Shown here in pieces: positions 9,353-33,352 of a stretch of DNA of 59,804 bases. Numbering within the stretch: the first letter of the stretch is position 1; the number at the start of each line of letters is the position of its first letter. Both the position numbers and the translations under genes were made by a program. Below the pieces are notes generated by a model, which was not told the DNA's origin, searched no databases, and was given only the letters and a program-made list of their open reading frames with translations. The stretch is from a virus (Duplodnaviria > Caudoviricetes): IMG/VR virus record IMGVR_UViG_3300046707_000232, positions 1 through 59,804 of that record; one strand, written 5' to 3'.

Positions 9353-10930
9353 CTACTCGATGCCGAGTTCGCGGTCGAGCGATTCGTCGAGCGGGGCCCG
9401 TGCGGGCCGCTCCGGAGCGGACGCCGACTCACGCACTCGCGTGTCGCCTTCGTCCTCGTTCTCGGTCTTGGTCGCGTTACCGGAAATTCCGGCTTCGACG
9501 ACGGGTGCGCTGGCCTCGCGCATCTCTGCGCGTTTGCTGTCGATCGCGCGGGCGACCGCGTCGCGGAGGACGTCGAGCGCCTCCATGACGATGGTGTCGC
9601 CTTCTCGGCGCGGCTCGGCGCGGAAGTCGTGGAACTGCTCGATCAGCGCTTCGCGGGTCGCCTGCGGGAGAGCTTCGGCGCCGTGGATCTGCTCGCGTGC
9701 CGCGTACCGCTGGTGCAACTGCTCCACGGTCTGCGCGTGGTCGGCGTCGATACGGTCGAGCGCTTCCTGGAATGCGGCTTCGGCCTCGGCGAGGTCCTCT
9801 TCGCGTTGGACGGCGACGCGCCGGCTGATCTCCGCTTCCATCTGCGCGGCCAGGCGACGCGCTGCCTGCGAGCCCTTGCCGCCCGGGAGCCGCTCGTGCG
9901 GGTTCGTGTCGCGGTCCTCGCTGCTGTCGCCGAGGTCGCCGGCGAGCGTGTCGTCCTCGAACTGGGAGAGGCCGAACATCGCATCGACGGGAGTGACATC
10001 GCGACCTTCCCGGCCGCCTTCGCGTTCGGTCCCCTCGACGGGCTCCCACACGCCCTCCTCGACGGCGGCGTCTGACGGCGCCTCAGCCGCTGCAGCTGCG
10101 GCATCCGGCGCGGTGGCGGCCGCGTCGGCGGCCTCGGCGAGCTCATGCCCGCATTCGCCGCACTTCGCGCCGCTCATCTTCCCGGACTTGCACTCGGGGC
10201 AGCTCGCCTTGGCAGCCTCTTGCGCGTCGGCGCCATCAGCCTGGCCCGCAGCGGCCGCTGCGTCGGTTGCCTCGTCGGTGGCCTGCGTGGCCTCCTCCGC
10301 CTCCTGCGCCGCGCCGTCGGCTGCGGCGGCCTCGGTGAACGCCTGCCAGGCCTCGGCCATCGCGTTGAGCTTCATGTTCCCGCCGCCGGCGCCGGCGCGG
10401 CTGACGACGTCGACGGACTTCACGACGTGGAAGGTGAGGACGGGCTTGCCGCGACGCCCTTCGCCCTCGATCATCTGCTCGGGCCCGGAATGCCCGCGCG
10501 CGTCGATCGAGACCTGCAGGATCTTGGGATCCGCCTCGATGTACGCCCACGCCAGCGGGTTGGAGATCAGCGCGGTGCCACGCACAACGGTCTTGCCATC
10601 ACCCTCGCGAGTCGCGACACGCGCGGTCCCCGGCAGGATGCGGCCGACGATCTGCTGCCATGGGCGCGGCTGCCCGTCGAGATCCTCCTCCTGCTGACGA
10701 GTGAGGTGGTTGCCGAACATCAGCACGCCGTCGGCGCCCTCACTGAACTTGCCGACGTTCGACTCGAGGAGATCCTTCGAGTAGAAGTGGTTGTCGCGCT
10801 GGTTGCCGAAGCCCTCGGCGATCAGGTCGACATCGACCGTCTGGCGAGCATCGTTGCGGCTGCCCTCGACGATGGCGGCCGACTCGTAGAGACGCTCGTC
10901 TGTTGGGGGTGCTGCCGCGATTACGCTCAT
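9353..10930 (-). CDS. Prohead maturation protease fused to scaffold
   Basis: N-terminal domain with G.NQRDNHFYS, MFGNH, VSIDARG, SVDVVSRAGAGG; acidic Ala/Glu-rich coiled-coil C-terminus. Confidence 0.85.
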   Translation of the reverse strand: MSVIAAAPPTDERLYESAAIVEGSRNDARQTVDVDLIAEGFGNQRDNHFYSKDLLESNVGKFSEGADGVLMFGNHLTRQQEEDLDGQPRPWQQIVGRILPGTARVATREGDGKTVVRGTALISNPLAWAYIEADPKILQVSIDARGHSGPEQMIEGEGRRGKPVLTFHVVKSVDVVSRAGAGGGNMKLNAMAEAWQAFTEAAAADGAAQEAEEATQATDEATDAAAAAGQADGADAQEAAKASCPECKSGKMSGAKCGECGHELAEAADAAATAPDAAAAAAEAPSDAAVEEGVWEPVEGTEREGGREGRDVTPVDAMFGLSQFEDDTLAGDLGDSSEDRDTNPHERLPGGKGSQAARRLAAQMEAEISRRVAVQREEDLAEAEAAFQEALDRIDADHAQTVEQLHQRYAAREQIHGAEALPQATREALIEQFHDFRAEPRREGDTIVMEALDVLRDAVARAIDSKRAEMREASAPVVEAGISGNATKTENEDEGDTRVRESASAPERPARAPLDESLDRELGIE

Positions 10931-11000: not shown

Positions 11001-13895
11001 CTAGCGGGTACCAGCGGACTTACGGCGATAACGCATGTGCCGGAGCGTTTGGGCCCCTACGACGCCATCGACGCGCAGCCCGTGTTTCTGCTGGAAGGCG
11101 CGCACGGCGCCCTCAGTACGGTTGCCGAACTTGCCGTCTCGCGCGCCGACGCTGTACCCGAGCTTGCTGAGGTACGTCTGCACGCGGCGGACGCGCTGCG
11201 AGCCGCCGCGGCGCGCGTACCCCGTGCCGCGCTGAACGCCGCCGGCGGAGAACCCCTTGACGTGCCTGACGTAGCCGGGTGTGCCAGCGTTATACGGGCG
11301 TGGAGCGTGAGGGCGCTGGATCGCGCGGCCGTGCCACCCGACGCGCTGGGCGCTGAGGGCCTCGTCGACGATCGCGAGCGCCTCACCGAGGATCGCATCG
11401 GCGGAGCCCTCGAGGACACGGTGTTGACGGCGCTCGCTCTGCGATCGGCCCGCACGGATGTTCCTCGCGAGCGAGTCGGCGTGGGCCGGGCTGATCCCGA
11501 AAGCGGCATCGGCGGCATCGACGGCGGTGTCGGCGTATACGCGCTGCGCAGGGACCATCTTGTTGGGGGACTGTCGGGTGACGCGGTACTTCCGCGACCC
11601 TGTGTCGGCGACCTTCTCGATGTCGTAGCTCAAACCGCGCTTGACGCGGACCGGCTTGTCGCCGACCTTCAAGCTCATCGCCTTGCCGACGACGTCTCGC
11701 CACCGGCCTTGCCCGTCGCGCGGCTGCCGCGGGTCGAATCCCGCCTCGGTGACATGGACCCGCCGGCGGCCGCCCGGGCCCGGGGTGACCTCGACGAGCA
11801 GGGGCGGTTGGTCGCTCTCGCGAGCGGGGCGCTTCTTGAGCCGCGCGAACTTCTCGCGGTCAGAGCCCTTGAGCGCACCGACCTGAGCTGTCTTGCCTTC
11901 GCCGCCCGCCAGCTGGACCGCGGTCTGGTGGCCGACCACGCCATCGACCTGGAGACCGTGGCGCTTCTGGAAGGCCTTGACCTTCGCCGTGGTGTCGTCG
12001 CCGAACTTCCCGTCCCTCTTGGCGCCGACCCTGTCCTGCACGGTCTTGACGTCACCACCCGAGGACCCTGCCTTGATGAACTGCCCGCCGGTCGCGTTGC
12101 CGTCGTGTGCACGGGGATGCTTGGACTCGAAGTCGCTCGAGCTGTCGGTGCCCGTTCCATGCTCGGGCTTCTCGCGCTCATTCTTCGCGGCCTCCCGAAC
12201 GGCGGCCCCTGGGTGCTCGACCGCGACGTCCAGCGGTTCCACGGCGCCCTCGCCGAAACGGATCACGATCGCGGGCTCGCCGTCCTTCTCGAGCCGGACG
12301 GTCTCCCCGCCCTTGAGGTTGAGCACGTCACCGTCCCGGTCGGGCGCCCCGGCGAGCGAGTAGCCGTGCTCGCGCTGAAGAGCGGCCAACGGCGCCTGCC
12401 ACTCGCCGGTATCAGCGCCCCGCAGCCGTTCCACGTGCTCGGCGACAGGCTCACGAGACGCCTCGGTGACGCCCCAGCTCAGGTTCCGCAGATCGAACTG
12501 GCGCACATCCTTTGAGCCCGTGCCGTCCTCCCAGAGCACGTCATAGATCCAGGCGCCGTCGTCGTCGACCGATTCGCCGATCACCTTCCCTCGACGCCCG
12601 AGCGAGAGATCATCGGCGGCTTCGGCGACCAGGTCCCCGAGCCGGAACGGTGCGGGCGCGTCCTCTCGAACCGAGACGCTCGCTTCCAGCATCTTGATAC
12701 TGCGCGCCAGCTCCGCCCGCGAGGACCGCTCGAGCGCATCATGGCGACGCCTCGTCCAGAGGCCATGCGCCTCCAGGAGCTGGTCGGCCCGATCGATCAA
12801 GACCTCAGACGGCAGCGTCGTCAGCGACGCCTCATCGATGTCCGTGTCATCGCCCGCAGCGTGCGCGGTCTCGAGCAGCACACCGCCGGACGCAGGCACA
12901 GGCGGAGCCTCCTCGACGCGCTCCTCGGGAAGCGCCGGCAGCGTGCCGCGGGGCTGATCGACCTCTCGCGCGATGCTCTCACGGGCAGCCGCAACGCGTT
13001 GCTCAAGACGCGACGCGGGCCGGCCACCGCCGAGCACGAATCGCGCGCACTCCTGCAGCGACGCCGGGTCCTCGTCCGCGTCGGCCGGCGCTCCGTGAAG
13101 TGCCAGCCACGCTTCCAGGAGCGGTTCGAGGCTGCCGATCGCAAGTTGCGGCGCGGCAAGGTAGCGGCGGAGATCGGACTCGATCGACGCGATCGCCGAC
13201 GACGAGCGCTGGACCTCGGCCTCCCACAGGGCCTCGAAGACATCCCGGTCGTCCGCCCCGGCGCCGAGCTCGGTGAGGACCTGCTCGGGAGAGATCCCGG
13301 TGAGGGATTGGACGTCCTCGACCAGCGCGTCGAGGCCGGGAGCGTCGATAGCGACCGGCATCGAGTGGGTGAATCGCGCGTACGCGGTGCTGCGCGCCTT
13401 GGTCTGGATGGCCTTGTCCTCGGCCTTCTGCGCGGGGTCGGAGCCCTTCCCGCGCCACTTCGTCGTTCCTGCCCACTGGTCCTTGATCCAGGCGCATAGC
13501 GCGTCGACGTTGCGGCCCTTCGCAAGTTCGGGGTGTTCGGTCTTGATCCGGCTGACGCAGACGCTGTGCTTGCCGTCAGCCCACTTCCCGAAGGCGCGGA
13601 TGATGTACCGCATCTGCCCGTGAGCGCGGGGGTCGTGACCGCCCATCGACCCGCCGGCGGAGGACTCCGCGAGGGCGTCGTTGCGGCTGAGGTACTGCTT
13701 CTCGCCGCGCCGGTTCTCGACGACGAGCATGTCGAGCGATGGGGCGAGTTCGACGGTCACGATCTTCTGCGGCCACCATCCCACGGTGAACGTGCCGAGC
13801 GGGCTCTCGATCCTTGACCCGACGGCACGGCCGTTTTCGTGGTGCGTGGAGACGCGCGCGTCCCGGAACACCTTGCGATGGGTGCGGCGACTCAC
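11001..13895 (-). CDS. Modular head-associated protein with two peptidoglycan-binding (PG_binding_1) domains
   Basis: Two DGKFG..T...V.AFQ..HGL.VDGVVG.QT motifs; FESKHPR..GGQF and FDPRQPRDGQGRW motifs. Confidence 0.8.
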   Translation of the reverse strand: MSRRTHRKVFRDARVSTHHENGRAVGSRIESPLGTFTVGWWPQKIVTVELAPSLDMLVVENRRGEKQYLSRNDALAESSAGGSMGGHDPRAHGQMRYIIRAFGKWADGKHSVCVSRIKTEHPELAKGRNVDALCAWIKDQWAGTTKWRGKGSDPAQKAEDKAIQTKARSTAYARFTHSMPVAIDAPGLDALVEDVQSLTGISPEQVLTELGAGADDRDVFEALWEAEVQRSSSAIASIESDLRRYLAAPQLAIGSLEPLLEAWLALHGAPADADEDPASLQECARFVLGGGRPASRLEQRVAAARESIAREVDQPRGTLPALPEERVEEAPPVPASGGVLLETAHAAGDDTDIDEASLTTLPSEVLIDRADQLLEAHGLWTRRRHDALERSSRAELARSIKMLEASVSVREDAPAPFRLGDLVAEAADDLSLGRRGKVIGESVDDDGAWIYDVLWEDGTGSKDVRQFDLRNLSWGVTEASREPVAEHVERLRGADTGEWQAPLAALQREHGYSLAGAPDRDGDVLNLKGGETVRLEKDGEPAIVIRFGEGAVEPLDVAVEHPGAAVREAAKNEREKPEHGTGTDSSSDFESKHPRAHDGNATGGQFIKAGSSGGDVKTVQDRVGAKRDGKFGDDTTAKVKAFQKRHGLQVDGVVGHQTAVQLAGGEGKTAQVGALKGSDREKFARLKKRPARESDQPPLLVEVTPGPGGRRRVHVTEAGFDPRQPRDGQGRWRDVVGKAMSLKVGDKPVRVKRGLSYDIEKVADTGSRKYRVTRQSPNKMVPAQRVYADTAVDAADAAFGISPAHADSLARNIRAGRSQSERRQHRVLEGSADAILGEALAIVDEALSAQRVGWHGRAIQRPHAPRPYNAGTPGYVRHVKGFSAGGVQRGTGYARRGGSQRVRRVQTYLSKLGYSVGARDGKFGNRTEGAVRAFQQKHGLRVDGVVGAQTLRHMRYRRKSAGTR

Positions 13896-13971: not shown

Positions 13972-14283
13972 TCAGGCCGCTGCGCGGCGGCGCCTGTCCC
14001 AAATCATGCGATGGACCTGGGCGCCGCTCGGCTGCTGCTGTTGGCGTTGCGCGAGCGCGTCCTCATCCGGGGCGTGGCCGTCTCTCTCTACGAACAGCGT
14101 CCAGCGCTGGCAGGTCGTTGGACGTGCCTCGTCGCTGTGACGATGGCAGTGGCCTGTCTTGCCTTCCCGAGCTTCGTGGATGGTGTAGACGGTGAAGCCG
14201 CCGCGGACGAGTGCCGACGCAAGAAGGTCGCCGGCGCCGATGTCGTCCGTCCCGCCGCAGACGTGGTAGCTGATGCGCCTCAC
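13972..14283 (-). CDS. Hypothetical protein
   Basis: GTG overlapping the upstream TGA. Confidence 0.5.
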   Translation of the reverse strand: MRRISYHVCGGTDDIGAGDLLASALVRGGFTVYTIHEAREGKTGHCHRHSDEARPTTCQRWTLFVERDGHAPDEDALAQRQQQQPSGAQVHRMIWDRRRRAAA

Positions 14284-15992
14284 GCCCGTCGCCGGCGCCG
14301 AGCGAGGGTGATCTGATCGCCGTCGTGCGACTCGTTCCACTTCGCGACGATCTGTGACACGCGCGCCTGGGTGACTCCGTTCGCGGCGCCGACGTCGCTG
14401 AGTGTCTGCTCACTGCGCCCATCGGCGATCGCGCGCGCCGCTTCGAGGATGGACCGGTCGCGCTCGGAAACGTCAATTGCGCGTGGGTCGAGATCTCCGA
14501 GGTAGGAGGTCTTGGTGCCGGCTTCGGTGAACGTGTCGGCGGGCTTGGCGAGACCGTCGGCGAGCCCACTGATGAGCGCCGCCGGGAGTCGCAGCTGGGC
14601 GGCTGTCGTGGCGACGGCGCCGTCTTCGCAAACCACCACGGAGATCTGGTGTGCGGCTGGCCGGGCCCGGCGAAGGAGTCGAAGGTCGCGGCGAGCGCGG
14701 ACCTCGTCACCCCACGAACGTGCGCCTTCCACATGCGCGACGGTGCCGCGCCGGTAGGAGACCGTGATCGCGCGAGTGGCATCGCCGTCGGCCGTGAGCC
14801 AGCCGAGCCCTGGTAGATCGCGGCCGCATTCGGTCAGCTTGTCGCCGGGATCGATCAGGCGAGCGGCGGCGAGAAGCTCGGTGAGCGCGGCTCGTGTCGA
14901 GCTGCTCGATGTCCGGGGCGCGCCGACGCGTGCGGGCTGCGCTGACACGCTGAGGTGTTCTCGGATGCTGCCGACGCCCGGGACGTTCACATGCCGGGCG
15001 TGCTCCCCGGGTCCGGGGACCGCATCGAGTAGCTGTTCGGCGATCGCCGTCTCGCCGAATCCGAGCTGGCGGAGGTCGGCGACGCGCGGGCTACGAAGCT
15101 GCGTGTGCCCGATGGTCGCGCACTCGTGGGCGTGCGCGAGAACGGCGCTCCACATCGTGGGAGTCATCACACCCCGCTCAAACGGGATGCCGCGGCGGCG
15201 CGCCTCCGCGGGCGCGAGCAGCTCACATTTGCAGCCGCCGTGACGGTTCGCTGGATTGACCTGATGCAGGACGTCCCAGCCCCAGAGCAGCCCGCGATCT
15301 TCGCGGCCGCCGGCCATGATCTCACAATCTTTTGTGTGCTTCGCGGCCTTGCCGAGCACCCAGACAGCGCCTTCCGGGCTCTCGGCCTCGATGCGCCGCG
15401 CTGCCGCCTCGAGCTCCATGCGGCGCTTCGCGGCGTCGATGTGATCCTGCAAGTAGCGTCGCTCACGCGCCAGCAGCCGCTTCATTCGTTCGCGTGTGCT
15501 CGCGCGGTCATCGGCAAGCAGGCCGCGGGCCTGGCGCTCGCTCACATCGAGCTGCCGCGCGATCTCGGCGACGTCGGCGCCGCCAGCCGCGAGTTCGCGG
15601 GCGCGGGCGGCGAGCGTGTCGTCGGCAAAGATCGCGTCGACGTCGCGACGCAGTCGGGTCCGGGTGTTCGCGCTGAACGCCGCGTCAAATTCGAGCTCGC
15701 GCGCGGCGACGGCATCGAGGTCGGTGCCGCGCAGCTCCGGGTAGAGCGCGGCGAGAGCGCCAGCCTTGAACTTCCGCTGCGCGCGCATGATAAGCGCGAG
15801 CAGAGCCGCATAAGCGGCTGTGGCTGCGGCGGTGTGCAGGACACCGCTGAACAGCCCAGTTGTCGTCTGCGCGGCGGCAGTTCCGGCTGCGATCGGGGCC
15901 GCGGCTGTCGACGTCGCCACGGCAAGGCCGCCGGCCGTCGCCTGTGGAGCGGATGGTTGGCGGCTCAGGTCCTTATCGCGCGGTGGCGGCAT
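14280..15992 (-). CDS. MuF-like minor head protein with C-terminal sigma-70 region-4-like HTH
   Basis: VW..G...HTKDC...HGGCKC MuF-type Cys/His signature; C-terminal TLSDVGAANGVTQARVSQI HTH. Confidence 0.65.
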   Translation of the reverse strand: MPPPRDKDLSRQPSAPQATAGGLAVATSTAAAPIAAGTAAAQTTTGLFSGVLHTAAATAAYAALLALIMRAQRKFKAGALAALYPELRGTDLDAVAARELEFDAAFSANTRTRLRRDVDAIFADDTLAARARELAAGGADVAEIARQLDVSERQARGLLADDRASTRERMKRLLARERRYLQDHIDAAKRRMELEAAARRIEAESPEGAVWVLGKAAKHTKDCEIMAGGREDRGLLWGWDVLHQVNPANRHGGCKCELLAPAEARRRGIPFERGVMTPTMWSAVLAHAHECATIGHTQLRSPRVADLRQLGFGETAIAEQLLDAVPGPGEHARHVNVPGVGSIREHLSVSAQPARVGAPRTSSSSTRAALTELLAAARLIDPGDKLTECGRDLPGLGWLTADGDATRAITVSYRRGTVAHVEGARSWGDEVRARRDLRLLRRARPAAHQISVVVCEDGAVATTAAQLRLPAALISGLADGLAKPADTFTEAGTKTSYLGDLDPRAIDVSERDRSILEAARAIADGRSEQTLSDVGAANGVTQARVSQIVAKWNESHDGDQITLARRRRRA

Positions 15993-19665: not shown

Positions 19666-21718
19666 GGATGCCGGGGCACGCCTCGTCGAACTCGGCGAGC
19701 GCGGCGTCGGCGGCTTCCTGCAGGTCACGCGGGAAGTCTCCCTCGAGCGCGCGGGCGAGGACCTCGACGGAGTCGACATCAGCGGCGACCGCTTCTCGCA
19801 GGTCGGAGGGGACCTCGTCGAGCGTGATCTCGCCGGCCTCGACGGCGAGCGCCCAGCGGCGGTGCGAGCGATCGCGCGCGGTCCGGCTGGCCGCGGTCGG
19901 GCCTCCGGGCGCATTCGGGCCGCGGTGACGGCCCTGGTTCGCGCGCTGCTCCGCCGCCGCGGCGGCCTGCTTGGCGTCGGTCGCGCCGCGCTGGGACTTG
20001 GTCTGCTTGTCGTTGGCGCCGGCGAGCGCCGGCCCGCGCGTGTCCTGGCCTACTCCCTGCCCGGGCGGCGCGGCCTGCGCGAGCTGCACCGCCTGCTCGA
20101 ATGGCGTGACCATGTCGCGCGGGAAGAGCTCGTCGACGATCTCGTCGGCGTTCGGCTTGCCCATCGCGTCGAGGATCTCGTGGACGACGAACCGCATCCA
20201 ACCCGTGTTCGCGGCTTGCGGGTCGACGACGGTGGAAGCGGCAGAGAGGTACTCGGTGATGTTCGCGACGTCGCGCTCGAGGATCGGCGGCATGTCCACG
20301 GTCAGCCGCGACGGGTCGAGCCCGACACCTTCGAGCATGTACCCCGTGATGTCGAGGATCGTCGTCTTCCAGCGCTCTTGGTTCCACTGCTGGCCCTTGA
20401 GCATCGGGCCGTCGACGCTGGTGGCGGTCGCGAGGTTCGACCCGTTCGGGTCGCCGAGCAGGTGAAGGCCGATGCCGGTGCCGGTCGCGATCTGGCCCTT
20501 GAAGATCGACGCGTCCGCCTGGGCGTTCGCGCCGTTGGTGTCCTGGACCATCGGCTGCAGGTCGACGCCCTGGCTCTCCACCGTCGCCTTCGTCCGGCCG
20601 GACTGCGCGACGGCTCGGGACAGGTTCTCTGTCGTCCCATCCATCGCGCCGGCGAGGCGCTGCAGGTCCATCAGCTGCGCGCCGACCTGGCTGACGCTCT
20701 TCGGGCCGCCCTTCGCCTTCAAGCGCATCGCGAGCTGCGTGATCGCCTGGACCATCGCAAGCCGAGACGTCATGAACTCGTTGAGGCCCTTCGCCCACTT
20801 CAGGACCGGCTGCAGGTCGGTGATCCCGAAACGCATCTTGCCGATCTTGTTCTCGTAGACGTGATAGACGCGGCCCGCGGCGATCTGATCGGCCGGCGGC
20901 CCCCACGGCTCGGTCTTCACGCACCGCGGCGACGTCGGCGGGCATGGCCGGTTCCGCTTGTCGCGGCCCCACAGGGCTGGTGCTTCGTGGCGCCAGTCGC
21001 GGTAGTAGAGGGTCACGATGTCACCCTCGATCCATTGTCCTTCGCCCTGTAGCGCGCTGAAGACGTACTCGCGCTCTCGGAACTGGCGCTTGTAGAAGAC
21101 CGGGATGTCGGCGTTGCCCGGGTGCGGGATGACGTCGACCATCTGCACGTCCGGGAGCGTGCTCATCTTCAGCGTCGCCGGCGGCAGCTGCCCGCGCGAG
21201 CCGACCGGGATCATGTCGTCCGTGGTCGGCGCTTTCTCGTCGCCGCGGAACAGCAGGAAGAACACGTTGCCCTGCAGGTTACTCTCGATGTCGCGCTGCA
21301 GCATCTTCTTCGTGCTCGTCAGCGCCTCCTGATTCTCGGGGTCCTTCCAGAACCTCGCGATGTACCAGGCGCCTGCCTTCGCCTCGCTCGTGGGGGCGTC
21401 CGGGTCGGGCTTGTACTTCGGCGGCGCCATCCCCCGGCCCCACGTGTACAGCGCGCGGAGCATCACGCTCCGCTTGATCATCGGGTCCCCGAAGAAGTAC
21501 TTGTACGACCGAAGGGTCTGCTGGACCTGGACGCCGCGCTCCGGATCGAAGTACGACCCGGCCTGCCCGCCGCTGCCGTAGAGGTTCCCGAAGTCCATGT
21601 CCTCAACCTTGCGGGCGAGGAGCTGGCCTGCGGCCGAGGACTCGCGGAGCGCGTCGACTTCCTCGCTGATGCCGAGGAGATCCATCGCGCCCTCGCGCAG
21701 AAGATCGCTCAGCCCCAC
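19649..21718 (-). CDS. Portal protein
   Basis: 689 aa; Y..DP.IKR, GNVF, RFGITDL, G.G.HLLGD...SNLATA features; position between terminase and head genes. Confidence 0.85.
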   Translation of the reverse strand: MGLSDLLREGAMDLLGISEEVDALRESSAAGQLLARKVEDMDFGNLYGSGGQAGSYFDPERGVQVQQTLRSYKYFFGDPMIKRSVMLRALYTWGRGMAPPKYKPDPDAPTSEAKAGAWYIARFWKDPENQEALTSTKKMLQRDIESNLQGNVFFLLFRGDEKAPTTDDMIPVGSRGQLPPATLKMSTLPDVQMVDVIPHPGNADIPVFYKRQFREREYVFSALQGEGQWIEGDIVTLYYRDWRHEAPALWGRDKRNRPCPPTSPRCVKTEPWGPPADQIAAGRVYHVYENKIGKMRFGITDLQPVLKWAKGLNEFMTSRLAMVQAITQLAMRLKAKGGPKSVSQVGAQLMDLQRLAGAMDGTTENLSRAVAQSGRTKATVESQGVDLQPMVQDTNGANAQADASIFKGQIATGTGIGLHLLGDPNGSNLATATSVDGPMLKGQQWNQERWKTTILDITGYMLEGVGLDPSRLTVDMPPILERDVANITEYLSAASTVVDPQAANTGWMRFVVHEILDAMGKPNADEIVDELFPRDMVTPFEQAVQLAQAAPPGQGVGQDTRGPALAGANDKQTKSQRGATDAKQAAAAAEQRANQGRHRGPNAPGGPTAASRTARDRSHRRWALAVEAGEITLDEVPSDLREAVAADVDSVEVLARALEGDFPRDLQEAADAALAEFDEACPGILSAAG

Positions 21719-22146
21719 TAGGCCTCCCGCCCGACAGTGATCAGCCCGCAGACGTTGAGTACGTCCTGGTAGATGCCGAGGCCGTGTGGCGGCCCGTCGC
21801 GCAACGGGTCAAGCACGGTGCCGTCATTGGTCATCACGACGAAGTGCGAGTTGCCTGACGGCTGCTCGACCTGGCACAGGTGAACATCGGCCCACGGCTC
21901 AGGCGGCCAGCTCGCGCCGCTTGCCCCCGCCCAGGCACGGTATGTCCGCTGGCGCCAGAAGCCGTGCTGTTGAAGAACGTGGTCCAGCGCCAGGTGATTC
22001 GTCCCGCCGCTCTCCCAATCACGAGACTTTCCATGCGCCGGGCTGGCCTCGATAAGCGCGCACCCCGCGGCGTAGTCGAGGCCAAGGATCATCGCAAGAC
22101 ATGCAGGTCCACAGCCGCTCGCGTGCTCCTGCTTGACCCTGCGCAC
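21718..22146 (-). CDS. C39-like cysteine peptidase
   Basis: VKQ....CGPACLAM, HFVVM, VLDP catalytic-triad pattern. Confidence 0.8.
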   Translation of the reverse strand: MRRVKQEHASGCGPACLAMILGLDYAAGCALIEASPAHGKSRDWESGGTNHLALDHVLQQHGFWRQRTYRAWAGASGASWPPEPWADVHLCQVEQPSGNSHFVVMTNDGTVLDPLRDGPPHGLGIYQDVLNVCGLITVGREA

Positions 22147-22147
22147 G

Positions 22148-22435
22148 TCAGACCTCCCGCCAGACGCCGCGCTCGAGGTACCCGTGCCAGAGAGTCCCGG
22201 AACCGTCAGAGACCCGGATCGACGGGGAAACCGTGATCGTGCCGTCCTCGTGCTCGGTGACGTCATGGCCCGCGAGGTTGCCGTAGTGCCCATTCGGGGT
22301 GCAGCCGCGCCATTCCCATCGCTCGTCAACGAGGACGCGTCCGTAGTCGCCGGCACGTGCGGAGTCCGCGTCATCTCCGTACCACTTAGCGCCGTCTAGG
22401 AGACGACGCCCTCCGGTGGTCTCGCCGACGGCCAT
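22148..22435 (-). CDS. DUF6527-like small protein
   Basis: TVSPSI...WHGYLERGVW. Confidence 0.6.
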   Translation of the reverse strand: MAVGETTGGRRLLDGAKWYGDDADSARAGDYGRVLVDERWEWRGCTPNGHYGNLAGHDVTEHEDGTITVSPSIRVSDGSGTLWHGYLERGVWREV

Positions 22436-22935
22436 CAGCCGCGGAAGTCCCGGAAGATCGCCGAGATCGCAGCGGCATCCCGCTCCGGGTCGCGGCCGCG
22501 TTCCCGCTCGATCGCGCGCTCGAGGTCACTGCGGCCGACGCCAGCATCATCGAACCGCATGCCCGACCGGATCTGCGCCTCCGTGACCTGGCGGCGCTTG
22601 CTCACGGCACGCGCGACGCGCTGGCGAGCGACCGCCGGATCGGAGTCCTTCTCGGCCACCCACACCGGGCACGACTCATACCCGCCGCAGCACCAGCCCA
22701 GGACGCCGACCGGGTTGTCATCCACGGCCATCGCGTCATCGGCGATCCCGCACTTCACCGCCGGGCGGCCCGTGTTCCCGAACCGCGTGATCGAAGCGGC
22801 CGGGCACGTCGCCTCAAGCTCGTCGGGTATCACGCCGCGCGGGACCAAGATCCCGTCGCGCTCGACGAGCTGCATCCTACGCAGGACCTCTCTGCCGTCG
22901 ATCACGCTCACCCGGCCAATCATCGGCGCGGGCAT
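22435..22935 (-). CDS. Hypothetical Cys-containing protein
   Basis: WCCGGYESCPVW motif; coupled genes. Confidence 0.55.
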   Translation of the reverse strand: MPAPMIGRVSVIDGREVLRRMQLVERDGILVPRGVIPDELEATCPAASITRFGNTGRPAVKCGIADDAMAVDDNPVGVLGWCCGGYESCPVWVAEKDSDPAVARQRVARAVSKRRQVTEAQIRSGMRFDDAGVGRSDLERAIERERGRDPERDAAAISAIFRDFRG

Positions 22936-22950
22936 GCGCGCGGCGCTACT

Positions 22951-24015
22951 TCACTCCACCCCAAACGCCAGCTGAGCCGCGCCGGCCTCCGGGTCAAGCC
23001 CCCACTCCATGTCGTCGTCGACGCCGAACACCGTGTCGGCTTCGATCTGCTCGCCCGCGGCGACGTCGTCGCGGTCGATCACCTCCGACTCGCCCCAGTC
23101 CAGCTCGGCGTGACCGTGAACTGAGAGGTACCCCATCACGCCGGCGACCGGGTCCGCGCAGTCCTTCGACCCCGACTGCGGATGATCCGGCGCCAAGCCC
23201 GGGCCGAGCGTCTCCAACTGCCGCATCTCCTGACGCAGCAACGCATACCGCGGCAACCGCACCCGCTCCTCATTCAACGCCTCGAGAACCTCCCGGTACG
23301 GCTGCGTGTTCTTCCCGTCCACCGAGAACTTCTTCGGGAGCCCGACGACCTCACCCGAGTACTTGTCGAATGTCATCCCAGCCGTCACGAGGCCGGCGAG
23401 CACGAGCTGCTGGGTCACGTCGGAGGACTGAAACCCGTCGAAGGAGAAGCTTGTGATGTTGAACCCGCGGAGCTGCTTGAGCTGCAGGATGAACCGGCCG
23501 ATGCTGCCGATGAATACCTGGCTGCCGACGGGCGCGATGATCTGCGCGACCAAGGGGATCTCGAACTCGCGAACGATCCGGGAGTACCCGTTCATCATCG
23601 GGTCCTTGCTCGTCTCCTCCGCGTACCGCGCGACGCGCCCCATCGCGATCCCCGCCGCGTCCGTGCGTCGCTCGACGTTCAGGGCGAGGTCGACTGCGAC
23701 ATGCCAGTAGCCGGCGTCCCACGCGCGGAAACTCTCGGCGAGACCGCCGATGAGCGACAGAGGGTCCGAGCTCGCGACAAGCGCGCGGTACTCGAGGTCC
23801 GGGTCCATGTGCTCGCTGAGCGCGCCGACGACCTGATCGGGCAGGACCATCGCGGCGTCGATCGCAGCGACGTCGGTGAAGTACGGCATCCGCGCGCGCT
23901 GCGGCAGCGACCCGTAGTCGAGGAGCGCGCCGCGCGGGTCCTTGCGGAACTCGGCCCAGTAGACGTCTTGCGGGATCGCGACGACGTCCTTGCCGTCGAC
24001 GTAGCGGACGGTCAT
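22951..24015 (-). CDS. Terminase large subunit, nuclease (RNase H-like) domain as a separate gene
   Basis: ATG 24015 overlaps the upstream TGA (ATGA); F..DP.GAL.DYG..P linker, HVAVDLAL, SFDGFQS, DHP..GSKD..D. Confidence 0.85.
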   Translation of the reverse strand: MTVRYVDGKDVVAIPQDVYWAEFRKDPRGALLDYGSLPQRARMPYFTDVAAIDAAMVLPDQVVGALSEHMDPDLEYRALVASSDPLSLIGGLAESFRAWDAGYWHVAVDLALNVERRTDAAGIAMGRVARYAEETSKDPMMNGYSRIVREFEIPLVAQIIAPVGSQVFIGSIGRFILQLKQLRGFNITSFSFDGFQSSDVTQQLVLAGLVTAGMTFDKYSGEVVGLPKKFSVDGKNTQPYREVLEALNEERVRLPRYALLRQEMRQLETLGPGLAPDHPQSGSKDCADPVAGVMGYLSVHGHAELDWGESEVIDRDDVAAGEQIEADTVFGVDDDMEWGLDPEAGAAQLAFGVE

Positions 24016-25520
24016 CTCAGCGTGCGGGCAGCTGCGTGGATCGCGTCGACGTACGGCTGGTCCTTCGCCTGGTCGTCGCGGGTGAGCTCGTCGAATCGCC
24101 TGAGGTCTTCGTGGCCGGGATCGAGATGCTGTTTCCAGGCCGCCCACGCGTCGTGGACGTCCTCACGCGTGGTGAGGGCGCCCTTCGTGAGGGCGAGGTA
24201 GGCGTACAGCCACTGCAGCGACGTCGGCAGGGCTTCGTCGAGCTGAGCGCCGACGGCGAGCAGCGCGCCGGCGAGCTGGGCGTCCGGGACGGTGTCGAGC
24301 GGGAAGAGTTCGCCGACACCGCCCGCGTAGTGCGGATTGGCTCGCGCCATCGAGGCCCGAGAGGCGGCCCGTGCCTCGCCGGCAGTCAGGAACCCCTCGC
24401 GTACAGGTCTCGGCTTGGCCGTGTAGATCTTCCACTGGTCGCGAGGCTTCGCGACCTCTTTGGGGATCTCGTCGGGGAAGTCCGGGTCGATGTCAGCCTT
24501 GGTGCCCGGCCGGTAGTTGGCCGGGTCGTCGAGGATGTAGTAGGTCTTGCCGCCGTCGTCGCTGAAGGCGCCCGGGTGCCGGCGGCTCTGGAACATGACC
24601 TTGCCCGCCGTGAGCTCGGCCTTGGTGAAGCTCTCGTGCGAGACGTTCATCCACTCGTCGAGGTCGTCGGTGAGCGGTGTGAGCGGCTCGTACATCGCGA
24701 GCTTCTTGAACAGCTCGAGCGCCATCATCGCCGACGTGCCGCTGTGCCCCTCGCCGCTGAACGTCTTCATGAGCTTCAGGACCGCGTTGCCGAGCATGCC
24801 GCCGTAGTCGCTGTCCTTGTCCATCAGGCCGGCGCGCTTGAGCTCGCTCTTGGCGTGGTCGGTGAGGTTGCTCTCGATGAACACCTCGAGCCACGCCGCT
24901 TCGACGTGGCGATCGGCGTCCGTCGGCGGGTTGCTCCCGGTCAGCGGGAACGAGTAGCGGGTGTCACCGACGACGAGGGTGACCTGGTCGAACTCGATCG
25001 CGACGCCTCTCGGGCTCCGGTAGTCGCTCAGGTCGTCGTAGGCGACGGTCAGGTGCGGGGAGTATCCGTGGTCTGTGCGTGCTGGGTAGCCGGCCGCCGC
25101 GAGCATGCCGACGAGTCGTTCGCGGGCGTCTGGCAGCGCCGGCACGTCGGGGACGAGGTAGGTGACGGGCTTCGGGCCTTCGGTGAACAGGCCGCGGCCG
25201 GCGATGACACCGCGCATCGGGCCTGTGCGCGAGGCCCATCGCATGACGGCGCCCTGGAGCATCCTGAGCCCGCCGGCGCGCGCGTCGCCTTCGGGGAGGA
25301 AGTCCTTGCCGAGGAACGCGAGCGTGACGTGGAGGTCCTCGGCCTTCTCGCCGCCGTCGACGGCGAGCTTTCGCGCCAGCTCAGGCGCGGGGTAGAACGC
25401 GACCATGCCGTGCTCCCCGCCGGACAGGTTGGCCTCAGCGAGCAACGCCTCGGCGAGCGATCCGGGCGCGTGCTCGGCTGCGAGCAGAGCCTCGGCCAGG
25501 GCGAGCAGGTCGAGCGTCAT
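24012..25520 (-). CDS. Multidomain protein: LAEA propeptide, 2H phosphoesterase, Tad3-like domain, RyR-repeat-like domain
   Basis: Two HxT motifs (LHVTLAF, PHLTVAY); SNL.DHA..EL..AG...GHSG.SA...EPLTPLTD...EW; DVHDAWAAW....H.DL..FDEL....Q.KD..Y. Confidence 0.8.
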   Translation of the reverse strand: MTLDLLALAEALLAAEHAPGSLAEALLAEANLSGGEHGMVAFYPAPELARKLAVDGGEKAEDLHVTLAFLGKDFLPEGDARAGGLRMLQGAVMRWASRTGPMRGVIAGRGLFTEGPKPVTYLVPDVPALPDARERLVGMLAAAGYPARTDHGYSPHLTVAYDDLSDYRSPRGVAIEFDQVTLVVGDTRYSFPLTGSNPPTDADRHVEAAWLEVFIESNLTDHAKSELKRAGLMDKDSDYGGMLGNAVLKLMKTFSGEGHSGTSAMMALELFKKLAMYEPLTPLTDDLDEWMNVSHESFTKAELTAGKVMFQSRRHPGAFSDDGGKTYYILDDPANYRPGTKADIDPDFPDEIPKEVAKPRDQWKIYTAKPRPVREGFLTAGEARAASRASMARANPHYAGGVGELFPLDTVPDAQLAGALLAVGAQLDEALPTSLQWLYAYLALTKGALTTREDVHDAWAAWKQHLDPGHEDLRRFDELTRDDQAKDQPYVDAIHAAARTLR

Positions 25521-25524
25521 CGTG

Positions 25525-25539
25525 CCCTGATCATCAGGG
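25525..25539. repeat. Palindrome CCCTGAT-C-ATCAGGG over the TerL-ATPase stop codon
   Basis: Perfect 7-bp inverted repeat read directly. Confidence 0.7.
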
Positions 25540-26598
25540 ACTCAGCACGGGCACGGCAACGTCTCGCGGCGCGTTGCGGATCCGGACCTCGTTGCCGTCG
25601 TCGTCCCTGCATATCGCGAGGCCGTGCTCATCGACCCCCAGGTAGGTGAGGTCCTTCTCCAACACGCGGATGCTGTCGGGGTCCCTGTCGAGCAGGAACA
25701 CGCGGACGCCCGGGACGAGCTGCTGCTTGGCTTCCCATGTCGAGATGCGCCGCACGAACGTCGTGACGTCCCAGTCTTCGCCGTCGCCGGCGACGATCTC
25801 CACGTAGCCACCCTCACTGCCGGGGGACGTGAAGAGGCCGCCCCACCCGAGGTTCGCGAAGCGGGACTTGCGGCGTCGGTTGAGTTGGCGGACGAGCTCC
25901 TTGACGTAGTCCGTAGTGGTCTGCCCCTGCGATTGCTTGGTGACGATGCCGAACGCCGCTTCGTCGACGGCCCAGCAGAACATGTTCCAGCCGAGCGCCT
26001 TACGAGCCATGCTGTTACCTGGCGCGAAGCGAATCCGGTTGGGGAACTCCAGCTCCGACTCTTTGTTGTCGAACGGCTGGAAGTTCAGCTGAAAGAACGG
26101 GGAGTTCTGGATGCGGCTGAGGACGTCGCTGTAGATGATCGCCTTCGCCTGGTCCGCGCCGGCGGCCGAGGCGTTCATGAGCGCGATCTCGGTCCGCGGG
26201 TCCATGTCGACGCCGGGGAACCCGCTGAGGTACTTCATCGGCCGTTTGAGGCTGCCAAGGACGTAGAGCGTGTATTGGAAGAGATACGCGGCTGAATAGC
26301 TCTTGCCGCTGCCTAGGCCTCCGACGAAAACGAACATCTCGTGTCCCGCGGAGGGGTCCATGAAGTCGCTCGTGAACTCGTCGATCGCGGGTCGCAGGTT
26401 CCCGCCAGTGCCGACGTAGTAGGGGTCACGGCCGAAGTGCTGGATCGGGACCGGCCACCACTTCCAGTCGTCGTCGCCTGTGTGCTCCGCCCATGCGATG
26501 TGCCGGTCTGCTGGCGTGAGCTGAAGGGCGCGGGCGGCGTCGTCGAACGCCTGCCACCGCGCCCAATACTCGTGAACGGGCTGATGAAGGAGGTACAA
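25534..26598 (-). CDS. Terminase large subunit, ATPase domain as a separate gene
   Basis: Walker A GGLGSGKS, Walker B WAVDE, R.KSRF and FTSP coupling motif. Confidence 0.88.
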   Translation of the reverse strand: MYLLHQPVHEYWARWQAFDDAARALQLTPADRHIAWAEHTGDDDWKWWPVPIQHFGRDPYYVGTGGNLRPAIDEFTSDFMDPSAGHEMFVFVGGLGSGKSYSAAYLFQYTLYVLGSLKRPMKYLSGFPGVDMDPRTEIALMNASAAGADQAKAIIYSDVLSRIQNSPFFQLNFQPFDNKESELEFPNRIRFAPGNSMARKALGWNMFCWAVDEAAFGIVTKQSQGQTTTDYVKELVRQLNRRRKSRFANLGWGGLFTSPGSEGGYVEIVAGDGEDWDVTTFVRRISTWEAKQQLVPGVRVFLLDRDPDSIRVLEKDLTYLGVDEHGLAICRDDDGNEVRIRNAPRDVAVPVLSP

Positions 26599-26601
26599 CG
26601 G

Positions 26602-27020
26602 CTACGGGCGGCGGGAGAGCCGCTCGACGCGGTAGTAGGCCTTCAGCGCGGCGTCGAACGCCCATCGGCGTTGCTGCGGCGTGCCGCCCATCCTCACGGT
26701 CGACGCGTATCGCATCCACGCAGCGTCGGATTCCTTGCCGAGCCGGAGGTCGCCGATCGTTGTCGGCGCGGCCGAGGCGAGTGTCATCTCGAGCACGGCC
26801 GAGAGCGCATGGGTTGCCGTCGCGAGCGTCGCGGCGTGTTCGAGGACGACGTCCGTGAGGGCGCCGACGCCGGCGTTGTGGAGGCGTGCTTGAGCTTCGC
26901 GACGCGCCAGAGCTGGTCGCCGCTGCCGTTCGTGAGGTAGGCGTCGACCTGGATCTCGTTGAGCGCGACCTTCCGCTTGGGGGCGGCGATGAGCACTGGA
27001 GTGACCGTAGGCGCGGTCAT
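26602..27020 (-). pseudogene. Frameshifted hypothetical gene, distal part in frame with TerL-ATPase across a TAG
   Basis: MTAPTV...VAKLKH frame degenerates near 26885 while the adjacent frame reads LHNAGVGALTDVVLEHAA...LEM...RRP-TAG-P-LYLL. Confidence 0.5.
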
Positions 27021-27030
27021 GGCCGCAGCG

Positions 27031-27648
27031 CTACTTCGTCGCCGGCCGAACACTGAACACCGCTGTCTTTCGGGGCTTGCCTTCACGCTCGAGCGCTTCC
27101 CATACGGTCCGCATCGCTTCTCCTGACGTCGTCGCGGTCACGACCTCTTCATGCACGAACACCACGGCCCACTTCCGAGGCCGCCCGTCCCAGCCGAGCG
27201 CGGCCGCTATCTGCCTGTACGTGTCGCTGGCGGGGACGCGGCGGCCCTCCTCCCACGCCTTGATCGTGTGCGGGCTGACCTTCAGCGTGCGGGCGAACTC
27301 GGGGCGGTTCATCCTGCGTGCGTCGCGCTCGTCACGGATCCGGGCCGGGAACGCGTCGCGTAGCTCCCACGTGATGCCGGGGTCAGGTGGGAAGGTGACG
27401 CGCGCGCCGCGGGGCTCGACGTCGAGGTGCGATGGGCGGACGCACCCGAGTAGAGCGCCCGGGCACCGGTGTACGACGTCGAACCCGTCCGGGGGGGCGC
27501 CGGCGACTGCTTCGTAGAATGCGAGGTACGGCCCCATCCCGGAAGCGGCCCTCAACTCGGGCGCGATGAGCCAACAGCCGGTGCGGGGGTCTTCGGTCAG
27601 GCCCTCGCGGCTTTGGATGATCGCGCGCGCTTCGGCTGCGGTCAGCAT
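27031..27648 (-). CDS. His-Me/HNH-like domain fused to XRE HTH
   Basis: TGCWL...YE...G.PP.G..V.HRC.....CVRPSHL followed by MNRPEFARTLKVS..TI..WE.G.R.P. Confidence 0.7.
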   Translation of the reverse strand: MLTAAEARAIIQSREGLTEDPRTGCWLIAPELRAASGMGPYLAFYEAVAGAPPDGFDVVHRCPGALLGCVRPSHLDVEPRGARVTFPPDPGITWELRDAFPARIRDERDARRMNRPEFARTLKVSPHTIKAWEEGRRVPASDTYRQIAAALGWDGRPRKWAVVFVHEEVVTATTSGEAMRTVWEALEREGKPRKTAVFSVRPATK

Positions 27649-27968
27649 CCAGGGGCGCTCGCGATGCCAGGGATCTCGCCCTGGCCCGGTAGGGTCGGTA
27701 GCCGCCGGGCGCAGCCGCGCCACGGCTCGTCCTCGGTGACGGTGGAGTCCCCCAACCGCGACGGCACGTGAACCGCGAGGACCCGGTCGAGTGGGACCTG
27801 CAGGCCGGCGATCGCGACGTACGCATTCGTGGCGGCGACACGAGAGACGTGCCCCTCGAGCCGATCGAGGTCCGCCCTCTCGAGTGTCAGCGACACTCGG
27901 CGACCCGTCGCCCACGCCGTGCGAAGCTCCCACGCGATCGAGCTGGTGGGGCGGATCAGGTCCATCAC
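27642..27968 (-). CDS. Hypothetical protein
   Basis: Coupled ORF. Confidence 0.5.
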   Translation of the reverse strand: MMDLIRPTSSIAWELRTAWATGRRVSLTLERADLDRLEGHVSRVAATNAYVAIAGLQVPLDRVLAVHVPSRLGDSTVTEDEPWRGCARRLPTLPGQGEIPGIASAPGC

Positions 27969-28504
27969 TGTGCATCGCGCGCCTCGGTCCGGCGGTGAGC
28001 GCGCCCGCGGCGCCGGACTCGCTGCCGGTCGCGATGCGCGGTCGTCAGCAGCGAGAGCCGGGCGTCACCCGTGGTGCCGTCCTGCGGCATCCCGTGCTCA
28101 GTCCAGTAGCCGAGCCCGGAGATCGCGATGATCTTCAGCAGCGCGAGATAGGGCGGCGCGTTGACGCCCTCTTCCCATTGCTTCCACGCGGACGACCGCG
28201 GCGAGTAGCCGATCCGGGTCAGTGCTTCTGCGCGGGTGAGGCCGTGCACCGTGCGGAAGTGGCGTAGCGCCCCGGGGACGTGCTGCCGGTCGCTGACCTC
28301 TGAGACCGGCCGTTTCCGGCGAGGGACAGCGCCGCTGCTGACAGCGCGGTGCCGGCCGCGGGCCGGTAGTTGCGGGAGCGCTTCGCGGCGCTCCCGGGCC
28401 TCCGCTTTCTGCGCTTGGGCGGCGAGTCGGCGCTGTTCGAGTTCGCGTTGGACCGCGGCGGCGAGCACGTCGGGCGGGATGCTCTCGTCGTCAGGTCTGG
28501 TCAT
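27965..28504 (-). CDS. XRE-family HTH protein
   Basis: LRHFRTVHGLTRAEA...IG.......WE.G...P. Confidence 0.65.
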   Translation of the reverse strand: MTRPDDESIPPDVLAAAVQRELEQRRLAAQAQKAEARERREALPQLPARGRHRAVSSGAVPRRKRPVSEVSDRQHVPGALRHFRTVHGLTRAEALTRIGYSPRSSAWKQWEEGVNAPPYLALLKIIAISGLGYWTEHGMPQDGTTGDARLSLLTTAHRDRQRVRRRGRAHRRTEARDAQ

Positions 28505-29285: not shown

Positions 29286-29299
29286 TCCTATAACCCTAT
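29286..29299 (-). promoter_or_regulatory. TAGGGTTATAGGA promoter/operator motif directly before the ATG
   Basis: Recurs before the genes starting at 38052, 50130 and 57752 and at 41694-41720. Confidence 0.7.
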
Positions 29300-33155: not shown

Positions 33156-33352
33156 GAATCGCCTCCTCGCCGACGCTTGGCGAGGTCCTCACAGACCACG
33201 CACGTCGGCGCGTCGTCGGGTGCGTCCTCCCCGATCAACCGCTTACCGCACAACCCTTTGAACCGGCCCGTCCGTCGAGTCGTGATATGCGCCAGCAACG
33301 GCGCCTTATCTCGCTGCGGCGCTCCCGCCGAGCGCTTGAGCAGATCGGTCAT
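33149..33352 (-). CDS. Small zinc-finger protein
   Basis: AH...LCG...CVVC. Confidence 0.5.
   Translation of the reverse strand: MTDLLKRSAGAPQRDKAPLLAHITTRRTGRFKGLCGKRLIGEDAPDDAPTCVVCEDLAKRRRGGDSW

Follow-up and report, generated by a model that had tools for sequence, protein, structure and literature searches.

Polyvalent proteins, the type I Thoeris inhibitor Tad3 and RyR-domain anti-Thoeris proteins are already known, and form the background to a phage gene that is described here. In polyvalent proteins, 2H phosphoesterase domains are fused to MuF or portal domains and have been proposed to degrade nucleotide signals (Iyer et al. 2017, PMC5512222). Tad3 is a homodimer to which two ThsB monomers are bound via its N-terminal helices (2026 review, PMC13728456), and mutations of its active-site loops did not do away with its activity (PMC13402655). 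RyDEP, which is gp78 of mycobacteriophage DyoEdafos, uses H75 and D117 as catalytic residues, with W78 placed at the adenine and H100 at the phosphates, and some of its homologues act as sponges (PMC13232231). RyR Tad, which is gp68 of Pectobacterium phage CB1, sponges 1''-3' glycocyclic ADP-ribose (gcADPR), its ligand residues being H129, W132, K147, H154, K170 and D171 (bioRxiv 10.64898/2026.06.04.730250); both RyDEP and RyR Tad act on type I Thoeris, which signals by cyclic ADP-ribose (cADPR) (PMC13232231; 10.64898/2026.06.04.730250). As to the processing of proteins in the phage head, the prohead proteases of T4, phiKZ and SPN3US cut after Glu, and the targeting peptides of T4 internal proteins are 10-20 residues long (PMC5694885). 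The gene considered here lies in the virus record IMGVR_UViG_3300046707_000232 (Caudoviricetes), all 59,804 nucleotides of which form the window of this analysis.

The open reading frame (ORF) occupies 24012..25520 on the minus strand and encodes 502 amino acids (aa) from an ATG start to a TGA stop. Its G+C content at the three codon positions is 0.70, 0.47 and 0.90, and the third value (GC3) is typical of coding frames in this record. The product is a fusion of a LigT-type 2H phosphoesterase (module 1), a Tad3-family domain (module 2) and a DUF7701 domain that resembles the RyR R12 repeat (module 3). It is quite probable that this is a multi-module counter-defence protein; that it belongs to the polyvalent proteins as a small member directed chiefly against Thoeris-type (TIR and cADPR) immunity is the reading towards which the evidence leans, with less assurance. 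An earlier note on this DNA had already proposed an anti-defence polyprotein here, and the ORF and the stretches that it quoted are all in place, namely a leader with three LAE repeats, HVT at residue 64, HLT at 156, HVEAAW at 205, SNLTDH at 217, PVREG at 372, QLDEA at 426 and DVHDAW at 454.

Three modules in one reading frame

Module 2 (aa 217-375; 24396..24872, minus strand) consists of a core of the Tad3 family and a C-terminal extension. The core, aa 217-336, matches Pfam Tad3 (PF25185) with E 2.1e-31 and 108.6 bits (cut-off 27), and in a six-frame search of the record the same model scored 112.2 bits. Against the solved Tad3 chain 9b7d_B, the sequence of the single module gave E 0.011 and a profile of 29 Tad3 sequences gave E 1.9e-9, covering only profile positions 37-115. 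The identification of the middle domain as Tad3, which the earlier note had suggested, is borne out by these matches. A homodimer of the module was predicted with an ipSAE interface score of 0.63, against 0.01 for the best of three controls; contacts agreed between runs to at least 96%, and the predicted local distance difference test score (pLDDT) of the partner was at least 85. Of 30 solved one-chain pairs, 20 reached the ipSAE mark applied, as did one of 23 single chains; since the Tad3 dimer has already been solved, the prediction may show no more than likeness to it. By analogy with the solved protein, module 2 would dimerise and bind the TIR signal synthase ThsB. The extension, which ends in V373-R374-E375, resembles those of two relatives, P0002 and P0073. 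On the other side, the linker between modules 1 and 2 (aa 201-216; 24873..24920, minus strand) ends in F214-I215-E216 directly before S217; stand-alone Tad3 proteins begin with MSNL, and, as the earlier note had pointed out, their start falls on the residue right after FIE.

Module 3 (aa 396-502; 24015..24335, minus strand) follows a second linker (aa 376-395; 24336..24395, minus strand). Pfam DUF7701 (PF24792) matches aa 433-499 with E 1.6e-22, scoring 80 bits on the whole protein and 83.5 bits on the module (cut-off 27). Five stand-alone DUF7701 proteins align from about Y398 of the target, so the module extends over approximately aa 396-502 and the stretch QLDEA (426-430), which had been taken for a linker with a junction at LDE, lies within it; LDE was accordingly rejected as a junction. 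The module was folded alone, a joint alignment with stand-alone modules having put the second half of the 2H module onto Tad3. The AlphaFold2 (AF2) model is all-helical, with a pLDDT of 86.7 and a predicted template-modelling score (pTM) of 0.82. When this model was compared with the PDB by Foldseek, the best match was the RyR2 repeat 4etv_B (E 0.77, probability 0.77, TMq 0.45), with RyR3 Repeat12 (9l91) sixth and a further RyR domain in 24th place; none of these matches is significant. In BFVD, Streptomyces phage proteins with DUF7701 took ranks 1-3 (E 3e-6 to 7e-4), and ranks 4-5 were RyR-domain phage proteins (E 0.07 with probability 0.93, and E 0.55). The first matches beyond DUF7701 are thus RyR domains in both databases, and the ESM Atlas returned a viral RyR cluster (feature score 0.85, TM 0.68).

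Profile alignment by hhalign gives the same indication with weak statistics: the DUF7701 alignment matched RyR Tad gp68 with E 0.002 (probability 13.8%) and RyDEP gp78 with E 0.003 (probability 10.1%). In these weak registers, target residues H456, W459, H470 and D487 fall on H129, W132, H154 and D171 of gp68 and on H75, W78, H100 and D117 of RyDEP, and K486 falls on K170 of gp68. The second His and the Asp are 17 residues apart in module 3, gp68 and RyDEP alike; H456, H470 and D487 are invariant in all six DUF7701 sequences and W459 is present in five of the six. Among the relatives, P0155 gave E 0.13 with the Pfam RyR model PF02026. The likeness of the last domain to RyR repeats, suggested before any database search, has therefore been strengthened by the rank of RyR among fold matches and by the agreement of the two registers, weak as their statistics are. 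Homology of DUF7701 to RyR-R12 appears probable on this basis. Module 3 would then be a trimmed R12-like domain, whose His...Trp...His...Asp set might cleave or sequester 2'/3' cADPR as in RyDEP or RyR Tad; by analogy, the chance that it binds or cleaves an ADPR-derived signal is put at slightly below even. In a collection of cultured phages, DUF7701 was found in 44 records, all 44 of Streptomyces phages, at genes ~190-240, and the ESM Atlas also lists it in Actinomycetota. The same atlas holds a cluster of 144 Actinomycetota-labelled proteins in which DUF7701 is fused to an 8xMP membrane domain (PF24838), so that a cellular, membrane-linked form of DUF7701 exists too.

Module 1 (aa 38-200; 24921..25409, minus strand) has the 2H fold with both HxT motifs, as expected from the earlier reading. 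Its match to Pfam 2_5_RNA_ligase2 (PF13563) on aa 60-163 is marginal, at 27.2 bits for a cut-off of 27. The two motifs, H64-V-T66 and H156-L-T158, are invariant in an alignment of 18 sequences (H35, T37, H127 and T129 in module numbering), and the 2H family profile found LigT/ThpR enzymes first in the PDB (1iuh, E 2.5e-5; 5h7e, E 1.2e-4; 1vdx, E 1.3e-3), followed by ns2a of the coronavirus MHV (4z5v, E 0.006) and rotavirus VP3 (5af2, E 0.31). Acb1 structures exist in the PDB. None of the nine PDB matches of the profile at E <= 10 is an Acb1 chain, and the target has no Acb1-type Pfam match at E <= 0.1. The description of the domain as Acb1-like consequently holds at the level of the 2H superfamily and was dropped at that of the family, the nearest solved relatives being LigT/ThpR. 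Module 1 would act by degrading a nucleotide signal or a 2',3'-cyclic-phosphate product.

This kinship also bears on a different view, that of an RNA-repair or housekeeping enzyme whose 2H module heals the 2',3'-cyclic phosphate ends of tRNAs cut by host anticodon nucleases, the other modules being accessory or unrelated. LigT and ThpR are RNA 2',3'-cyclic phosphodiesterases, the homologues of the 2H module in cultured phages carry the annotation 'RNA ligase', and P0073, which bears Tad3, has a CCA-adding enzyme and an HD domain. Against these stand the statement of Iyer et al. (2017, PMC5512222) that no 2H version of this kind is ever associated with an RNA ligase, the fact that no ligase or kinase partner is seen beside the target gene, and the two Thoeris-linked modules for which RNA repair offers no explanation; such a role is judged very improbable.

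In front of module 1 stands a leader of 37 residues (25410..25520, minus strand), MTLDLLALAEALLAAEHAPGSLAEALLAEA, which is rich in Ala, Leu and Glu and carries LAE at residues 8-10, 22-24 and 27-29. The last box, L27-A28-E29|A30, comes nine residues before the module start at G38. The annotated start has a weak AGGG box and lies 13 nt past the stop of the upstream gene; an internal ATG at M39 has a GGGGAG box 6 nt upstream, so a leaderless product is possible. We think that the leader is translated, because 34 of its 38 codons, counted by eye, have a high GC3, the alignment of phrog_2659 begins at target residue 13, and six relatives align from query residues 3-9. In longer relatives the 2H module is preceded by linkers, with which aa 3-37 align and to which the leader is homologous.

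Relatives, junction boxes and possible delivery

An exhaustive HMMER search found 5106 proteins at E <= 1e-3, and the best 150 of the 5106 (149 relatives and the query, the relatives being 127 to 2391 aa long) were used, with modules mapped by phmmer. Within this set, 85 proteins have only Tad3 and 60 only 2H. The order 2H then Tad3 occurs in P0003 (1615 aa) and P0004 (1516 aa), Tad3 then 2H in P0002 (801 aa), and DUF7701 with 2H in a single relative, P0127 (1184 aa); all three modules together are found in the query only. A word-index protein search gave one relative of the whole target protein and five of the DUF7701 module.

The company that these modules keep was tallied by Pfam in two sets of 41 and 109 proteins, with P0004 in both, for the first 25 families of each. 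Among them are Portal_Mu (5+1) and Phage_portal (1), seven together, the P23-45 portal barrel (2), Peptidase_S78_2 (1+4, five together) and Phage_Mu_F (1, E 1.9e-4), as well as ART-PolyVal (1), ADPrib_exo_Tox (2), Zeta_toxin (2), Topoisom_I (2) and NUDIX (1+2); LPD1 and zincin-type HExxH regions are also carried by relatives of the modules. P0028 is a fusion of a portal followed by 2H, and gp18 of Gordonia phage Tiamoceli (950 aa), which is encoded between the head-morphogenesis and capsid genes, includes the 2H module. The links to virion domains, as judged from these architectures, are mainly those of the 2H module. The partners in 10 long Tad3-bearing relatives are of other kinds: a CCA-adding enzyme with HD, cytidylyltransferase-like domains (two), DUF5661 (three), HNH and an intein. 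In P0060 and P0133, Tad3 is joined to the cytidylyltransferase-like domain, which has a fold of the nicotinamide mononucleotide (NMN) adenylyltransferase type, in P0073 to the CCA-adding enzyme with HD, and the C-terminal end of P0060 is an intein splicing domain; to judge from the partners in these three proteins, NAD or tRNA repair may be companion functions.

Boxes of the form hydrophobic-x-Glu recur where modules meet. Among the 69 relatives whose Tad3 module starts beyond residue 14 (the other 19 of 88 being excluded), 45 have a [LIVMF]-x-E whose Glu stands at position -1 or 0, against a background of 2.9% per position. Stand-alone Tad3 proteins start with M-S-N-L or M-(S/G)-L at this very point, so a cut after Glu would recreate their N-terminus within one residue. 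At the N-terminal junction of 2H, for which 57 of 64 relatives were usable, [LIVMF]-x-E occurs in the window -14..-7 in 35 of 57, and five upstream control windows gave 10-12 of 51-55; with [AGS] required after the Glu, the counts are 30 of 57 and 2-7 of 51-55. The typical form here is L-R-E-A, then a stretch rich in Pro, Gly, Ser and Thr, then T-G-A-M-V-A-L-Y-P, and the target's L-A-E-A-N-L-S-G-G-E-H-G-M-V-A-F-Y-P fits it. The C-terminal junction of 2H has a box in 24 of 55 relatives, against 5-13 of 52-55 in controls. The target itself has boxes at all three junctions, at E29, E216 and E375, and the one at E375 has its homologue in front of the 2H module of P0002.

These observations bear on how the protein would reach its target. 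It would be made late, loaded into the prohead and carried into the next host with the DNA, and it would be cut after Glu at three junctions, E29|A30, E216|S217 and E375|G376. Both packaging and cleavage remain plausible because of the portal, prohead-protease and MuF-like fusions of the relatives and the enrichment of boxes at junctions. Packaging in the head, which the earlier note had assumed, receives indirect support from those fusions of 2H relatives and from the position of the gene in a packaging operon, and none from the domains of the target itself; it is entertained as possible, somewhat short of an even chance. Cleavage at the boxes, likewise assumed before, is supported indirectly by their enrichment, for which a mundane structural explanation also exists, and is considered unlikely. 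The counts do not separate a cleavage-site reading of the boxes from a structural one.

The same body of evidence can be read in terms of an inhibitor that is never packaged or cut and that acts late, as one polypeptide in the cytoplasm of the producing cell, when the host sensor fires. Late co-expression would be timely for such a protein, given that the capsid is stated to trigger type I Thoeris; the target lacks an anchor domain, the partners of Tad3 in the 10 long relatives are non-structural enzymes, and fused two-module cytoplasmic anti-signalling proteins such as Acb4-Sequestin are known. Less easily accommodated are the repeated fusion of the 2H module to portal and prohead-protease domains, the homology of the leader to inter-domain linkers of portal and prohead-protease fusion proteins, and the enrichment of junction boxes in the family. 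In cultured phages, moreover, stand-alone Tad3 and DUF7701 genes lie outside structural modules, so that the position of the target inside the terminase is an exception needing a reason. An uncut cytoplasmic inhibitor is regarded as an explanation of low likelihood, though it is the chief rival of the main reading.

The split large terminase and the neighbouring head genes

The gene lies between two halves of a large terminase. The N-terminal, ATPase half (25534..26598, minus strand; 354 aa) has the Walker A sequence GGLGSGKS and ends 13 nt before the target ATG; the C-terminal, nuclease half (22951..24015, minus strand; 354 aa) starts with an ATG (24015-24013) that overlaps the target TGA (24014-24012). 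The halves were identified by tblastn, phmmer against the PDB being uninformative. The first matches terminase genes in 264 phage records and the second in 335 at E <= 0.01; every annotated row listed for the nuclease half is a single gene, and of the 40 rows listed 34 are named terminase, three 'hypothetical protein' and one 'DarB-like antirestriction', with two unannotated. When aligned with the terminase of Gordonia phage MrWormie (658 aa), the first half matches residues 67-262 (E 3e-12) and the second residues 307-620 (E 9e-20). Since they cover separate parts of that protein, the enzyme is read from its sequence as split at the ATPase-nuclease linker, with the target filling the gap, and the ATGA overlap marks the target as translationally coupled to the nuclease half. 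No homing-endonuclease domain was found in the gene between the halves, and no terminator-like site on the minus strand in 19000-29500. The gene order continues downstream with the portal (19649-21718), four large proteins, a decoration protein and a Phage_capsid_4 capsid (7829-8911). With terminase, portal and capsid genes as neighbours, the target is part of a late packaging operon, and since it is transcribed and translationally coupled with the split terminase, its protein would be made late. Neither a megablast of 22000-28000 against phages nor a scan of viral contigs with the N-terminal half of the terminase returned relatives of the locus. In Rhodobacter phage RcTiptonus, the terminase (L004:1865-5005) has 1046 aa, compared with 658 aa in MrWormie, and an insertion in the same enzyme of another lineage seems possible from its length.

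A gene in such a place might be a decaying remnant, the fragment of a former giant polyvalent protein that a rearrangement left in the terminase gene and that has lost selection. In favour of this, the leader has the look of an inter-domain linker that has lost its context, the break in the terminase falls at exactly this position, and no other protein among the best 150 of 5106 combines the three modules. The frame of 502 codons is nevertheless intact, with a GC3 of 0.90; both HxT motifs and the invariant residues of Tad3 and DUF7701 are kept, and the tidy start and stop junctions imply translational coupling. Decay is for these reasons hardly credible.

The head-module genes supply two further proteins with ties to the polyvalent relatives. 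The first, p570 (14280..15992, minus strand; 570 aa), has an N-terminal domain (aa ~10-295) that is homologous to the N-termini of 10 polyvalent relatives, with E 4e-22 to 1e-10; in nine of the ten, a 2H or Tad3 module follows within ~100 residues, and one of the ten has a weak MuF match of 17.8 bits, below the cut-off. A helix-turn-helix (HTH) lies at ~aa 133-159 of p570 and a sigma-70 region 4-like HTH at aa 509-550. The second, p964 (11001..13895, minus strand; 964 aa), is encoded between the portal and capsid genes, has a module (aa 293-475) in common with two relatives that bear 2H, and carries two PG_binding_1 peptidoglycan-binding repeats at its C-terminus; it is probably a polyvalent or ejection protein itself. 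The head proteins of this record have no match to those of Gordonia phage Tiamoceli.

A protease that might cut the boxes is suggested by a lead only. The decoration and capsid genes are immediately preceded, on the upstream side, by that of p525 (9353..10930, minus strand; 525 aa), which looks like a protease-scaffold protein. The N-terminal domain of p525 is conserved, Cys residues are concentrated in the stretch CPEC...CGEC at ~aa 243-260, and the tail, rich in Ala and Glu, contains numerous hydrophobic-x-E-A sites. It has two relatives in the word-index protein search, with H75 and S141 conserved; tblastn of aa 1-200 found one hypothetical protein (E 4e-3), and p525 has no Pfam or PHROG match. 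Its neighbours in the ESM Atlas are S77, S80, DUF2213 and YonD_N clusters and the N-termini of protease-capsid fusions, with TM values of 0.25-0.33 by query. The designation of this ORF as the protease, made in the earlier note, has not been confirmed by any of these searches. Kinship to T4 gp21, on which that note had modelled the processing, finds no counterpart in the record, in which Pfam S77 (PF03420) has no match at E <= 10, the record being ~75% complete; searches of the record with PF03420, PF09979, PF14550, phrog_133 and phrog_4523 returned the capsid gene only, or nothing, and MuF (PF04233) has no match in it. The capsid protein (7829-8911, minus strand) contains L-T-E-A (30-33) and L-Q-E-S (39-42), and its Pfam capsid domain starts at residue 39; from these positions, the two sequences are possible maturation sites.

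The record as a whole is linear, with 69% G+C and an estimated completeness of ~75% (CheckV), has no direct terminal repeat at its ends, and carries nearly all of its genes on the minus strand. It encodes a tyrosine integrase at 58064-58990 (plus strand), by which the phage is taken to be temperate. Other genes of the record, all on the minus strand, encode a 767-aa protein with a C5 cytosine methylase domain (33349-35652), a radical SAM protein (36814-37557), a HerA/FtsK-like ATPase (44747-46870) and a DUF5131 protein (46938-47888).

Weight of the evidence and comparison with known systems

Several points weigh against a Thoeris-directed, packaged and processed protein. The target has no portal, MuF or protease domain in Pfam and PHROGs and no proven capsid-targeting signal, and its targeting of Thoeris is putative. 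For module 2, the N-terminal helices of the solved Tad3 are left unaligned by the family profile, and according to the review these are the helices that contact ThsB (PMC13728456); the 10 long Tad3-bearing relatives have no portal or protease partner, and in 58 cultured-phage records the Tad3 module is found in small right-arm genes. For module 3, the stretch from the Trp to the second His is ~11 residues shorter, the GW-YG loop and the gp68 ligand K147 being absent, Pfam RyR (PF02026) has no match to the module at E <= 10, and with hhalign probabilities of 10-14% and Foldseek E values above 0.05, homology to RyR is not statistically secure. The prohead protease is unconfirmed, the S77, S78_2 and DUF2213 models having found only the capsid gene or nothing in the record, and the AF2 model of p525 aa 1-200, built from three sequences, has a pLDDT of 46. 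Helix N-termini often have an acidic residue and a hydrophobic 'staple'; rather than being cleavage sites, the boxes before Tad3 could have this capping or staple role in the first helix of the domain, and those before 2H could mark the end of a conserved helix.

At the other extreme, all three modules might act on type I Thoeris step by step, and the protein might be a capsid cargo, made late inside a terminase gene that it has split and cut by the prohead protease at boxes of the form hydrophobic-x-Glu(-Ala); such boxes would then serve polyvalent proteins of high-GC phages as a general processing code. Tad3 would block the TIR synthase, DUF7701 would cleave or sequester cADPR, and 2H would remove a further nucleotide product, the released Tad3 modules sharing their N-terminus with the stand-alone proteins. 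This extension of the Thoeris-directed reading is considered improbable.

What is new at this locus is the three-module architecture, the proposal of DUF7701 as a trimmed RyDEP-like domain, the occurrence of Tad3 modules inside polyvalent proteins, the junction boxes and the splitting of the terminase by the target gene. In the literature search, which did not extend to supplementary lists of architectures or homologues, no publication was found that mentions DUF7701 or that joins Tad3 with polyvalent proteins. If the proposal is correct, DUF7701 would be added to the RyR-domain proteins that act on cyclic ADP-ribose signals by cleavage or as sponges, and would widen a family described only in 2026. 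The fusion of Tad3 with 2H in four proteins (the target and three relatives), together with the RyR-like module in the target, suggests a counter-defence role for the LigT-like 2H domains that are common in actinophage head modules under the name 'RNA ligase'. If the protein is packaged and cut, it would offer a concrete, testable example of anti-signalling proteins that arrive with the capsid in finished form, and its candidate cleavage sites are precise. The split terminase is an unusual 'gene in pieces', the intervening gene being no homing endonuclease.

The target may be compared with five groups of described proteins. As in polyvalent proteins (Iyer et al. 2017, PMC5512222), several disparate effector domains stand in one polypeptide and the gene lies beside head and packaging genes, here between the terminase halves and upstream of the portal gene; unlike them, the target has only 502 aa and neither a MuF or portal anchor nor a metallopeptidase domain. 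That survey of 2017 predates the definition of Tad3 and DUF7701. With the viral 2H phosphodiesterases by which immune nucleotides are destroyed, T4 Acb1, coronavirus ns2 and rotavirus VP3, module 1 shares the 2H fold and the two HxT/S motifs, but it is closest to the cellular LigT/ThpR enzymes. With the solved Tad3 (PDB 9b7d; PF25185), module 2 shares the family, a profile match and a predicted homodimer; it differs in being a module of a fusion, of which only the core aligns. With RyDEP and RyR Tad, module 3 may share a helical R12-like fold and the motif H-x2-W ... H-x16-D, although DUF7701 is a separate Pfam family. The T4 internal proteins include IPI*, an injected anti-restriction protein. 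The N-terminal peptide of the target ends in hydrophobic-x-Glu as do those of the internal proteins processed by gp21, a resemblance of sequence pattern only, whereas its leader of 29-37 residues with three repeats differs from theirs, the record contains no detected S77 protease, and the capsid, unlike that of T4, is HK97/Mu-like (Phage_capsid_4).

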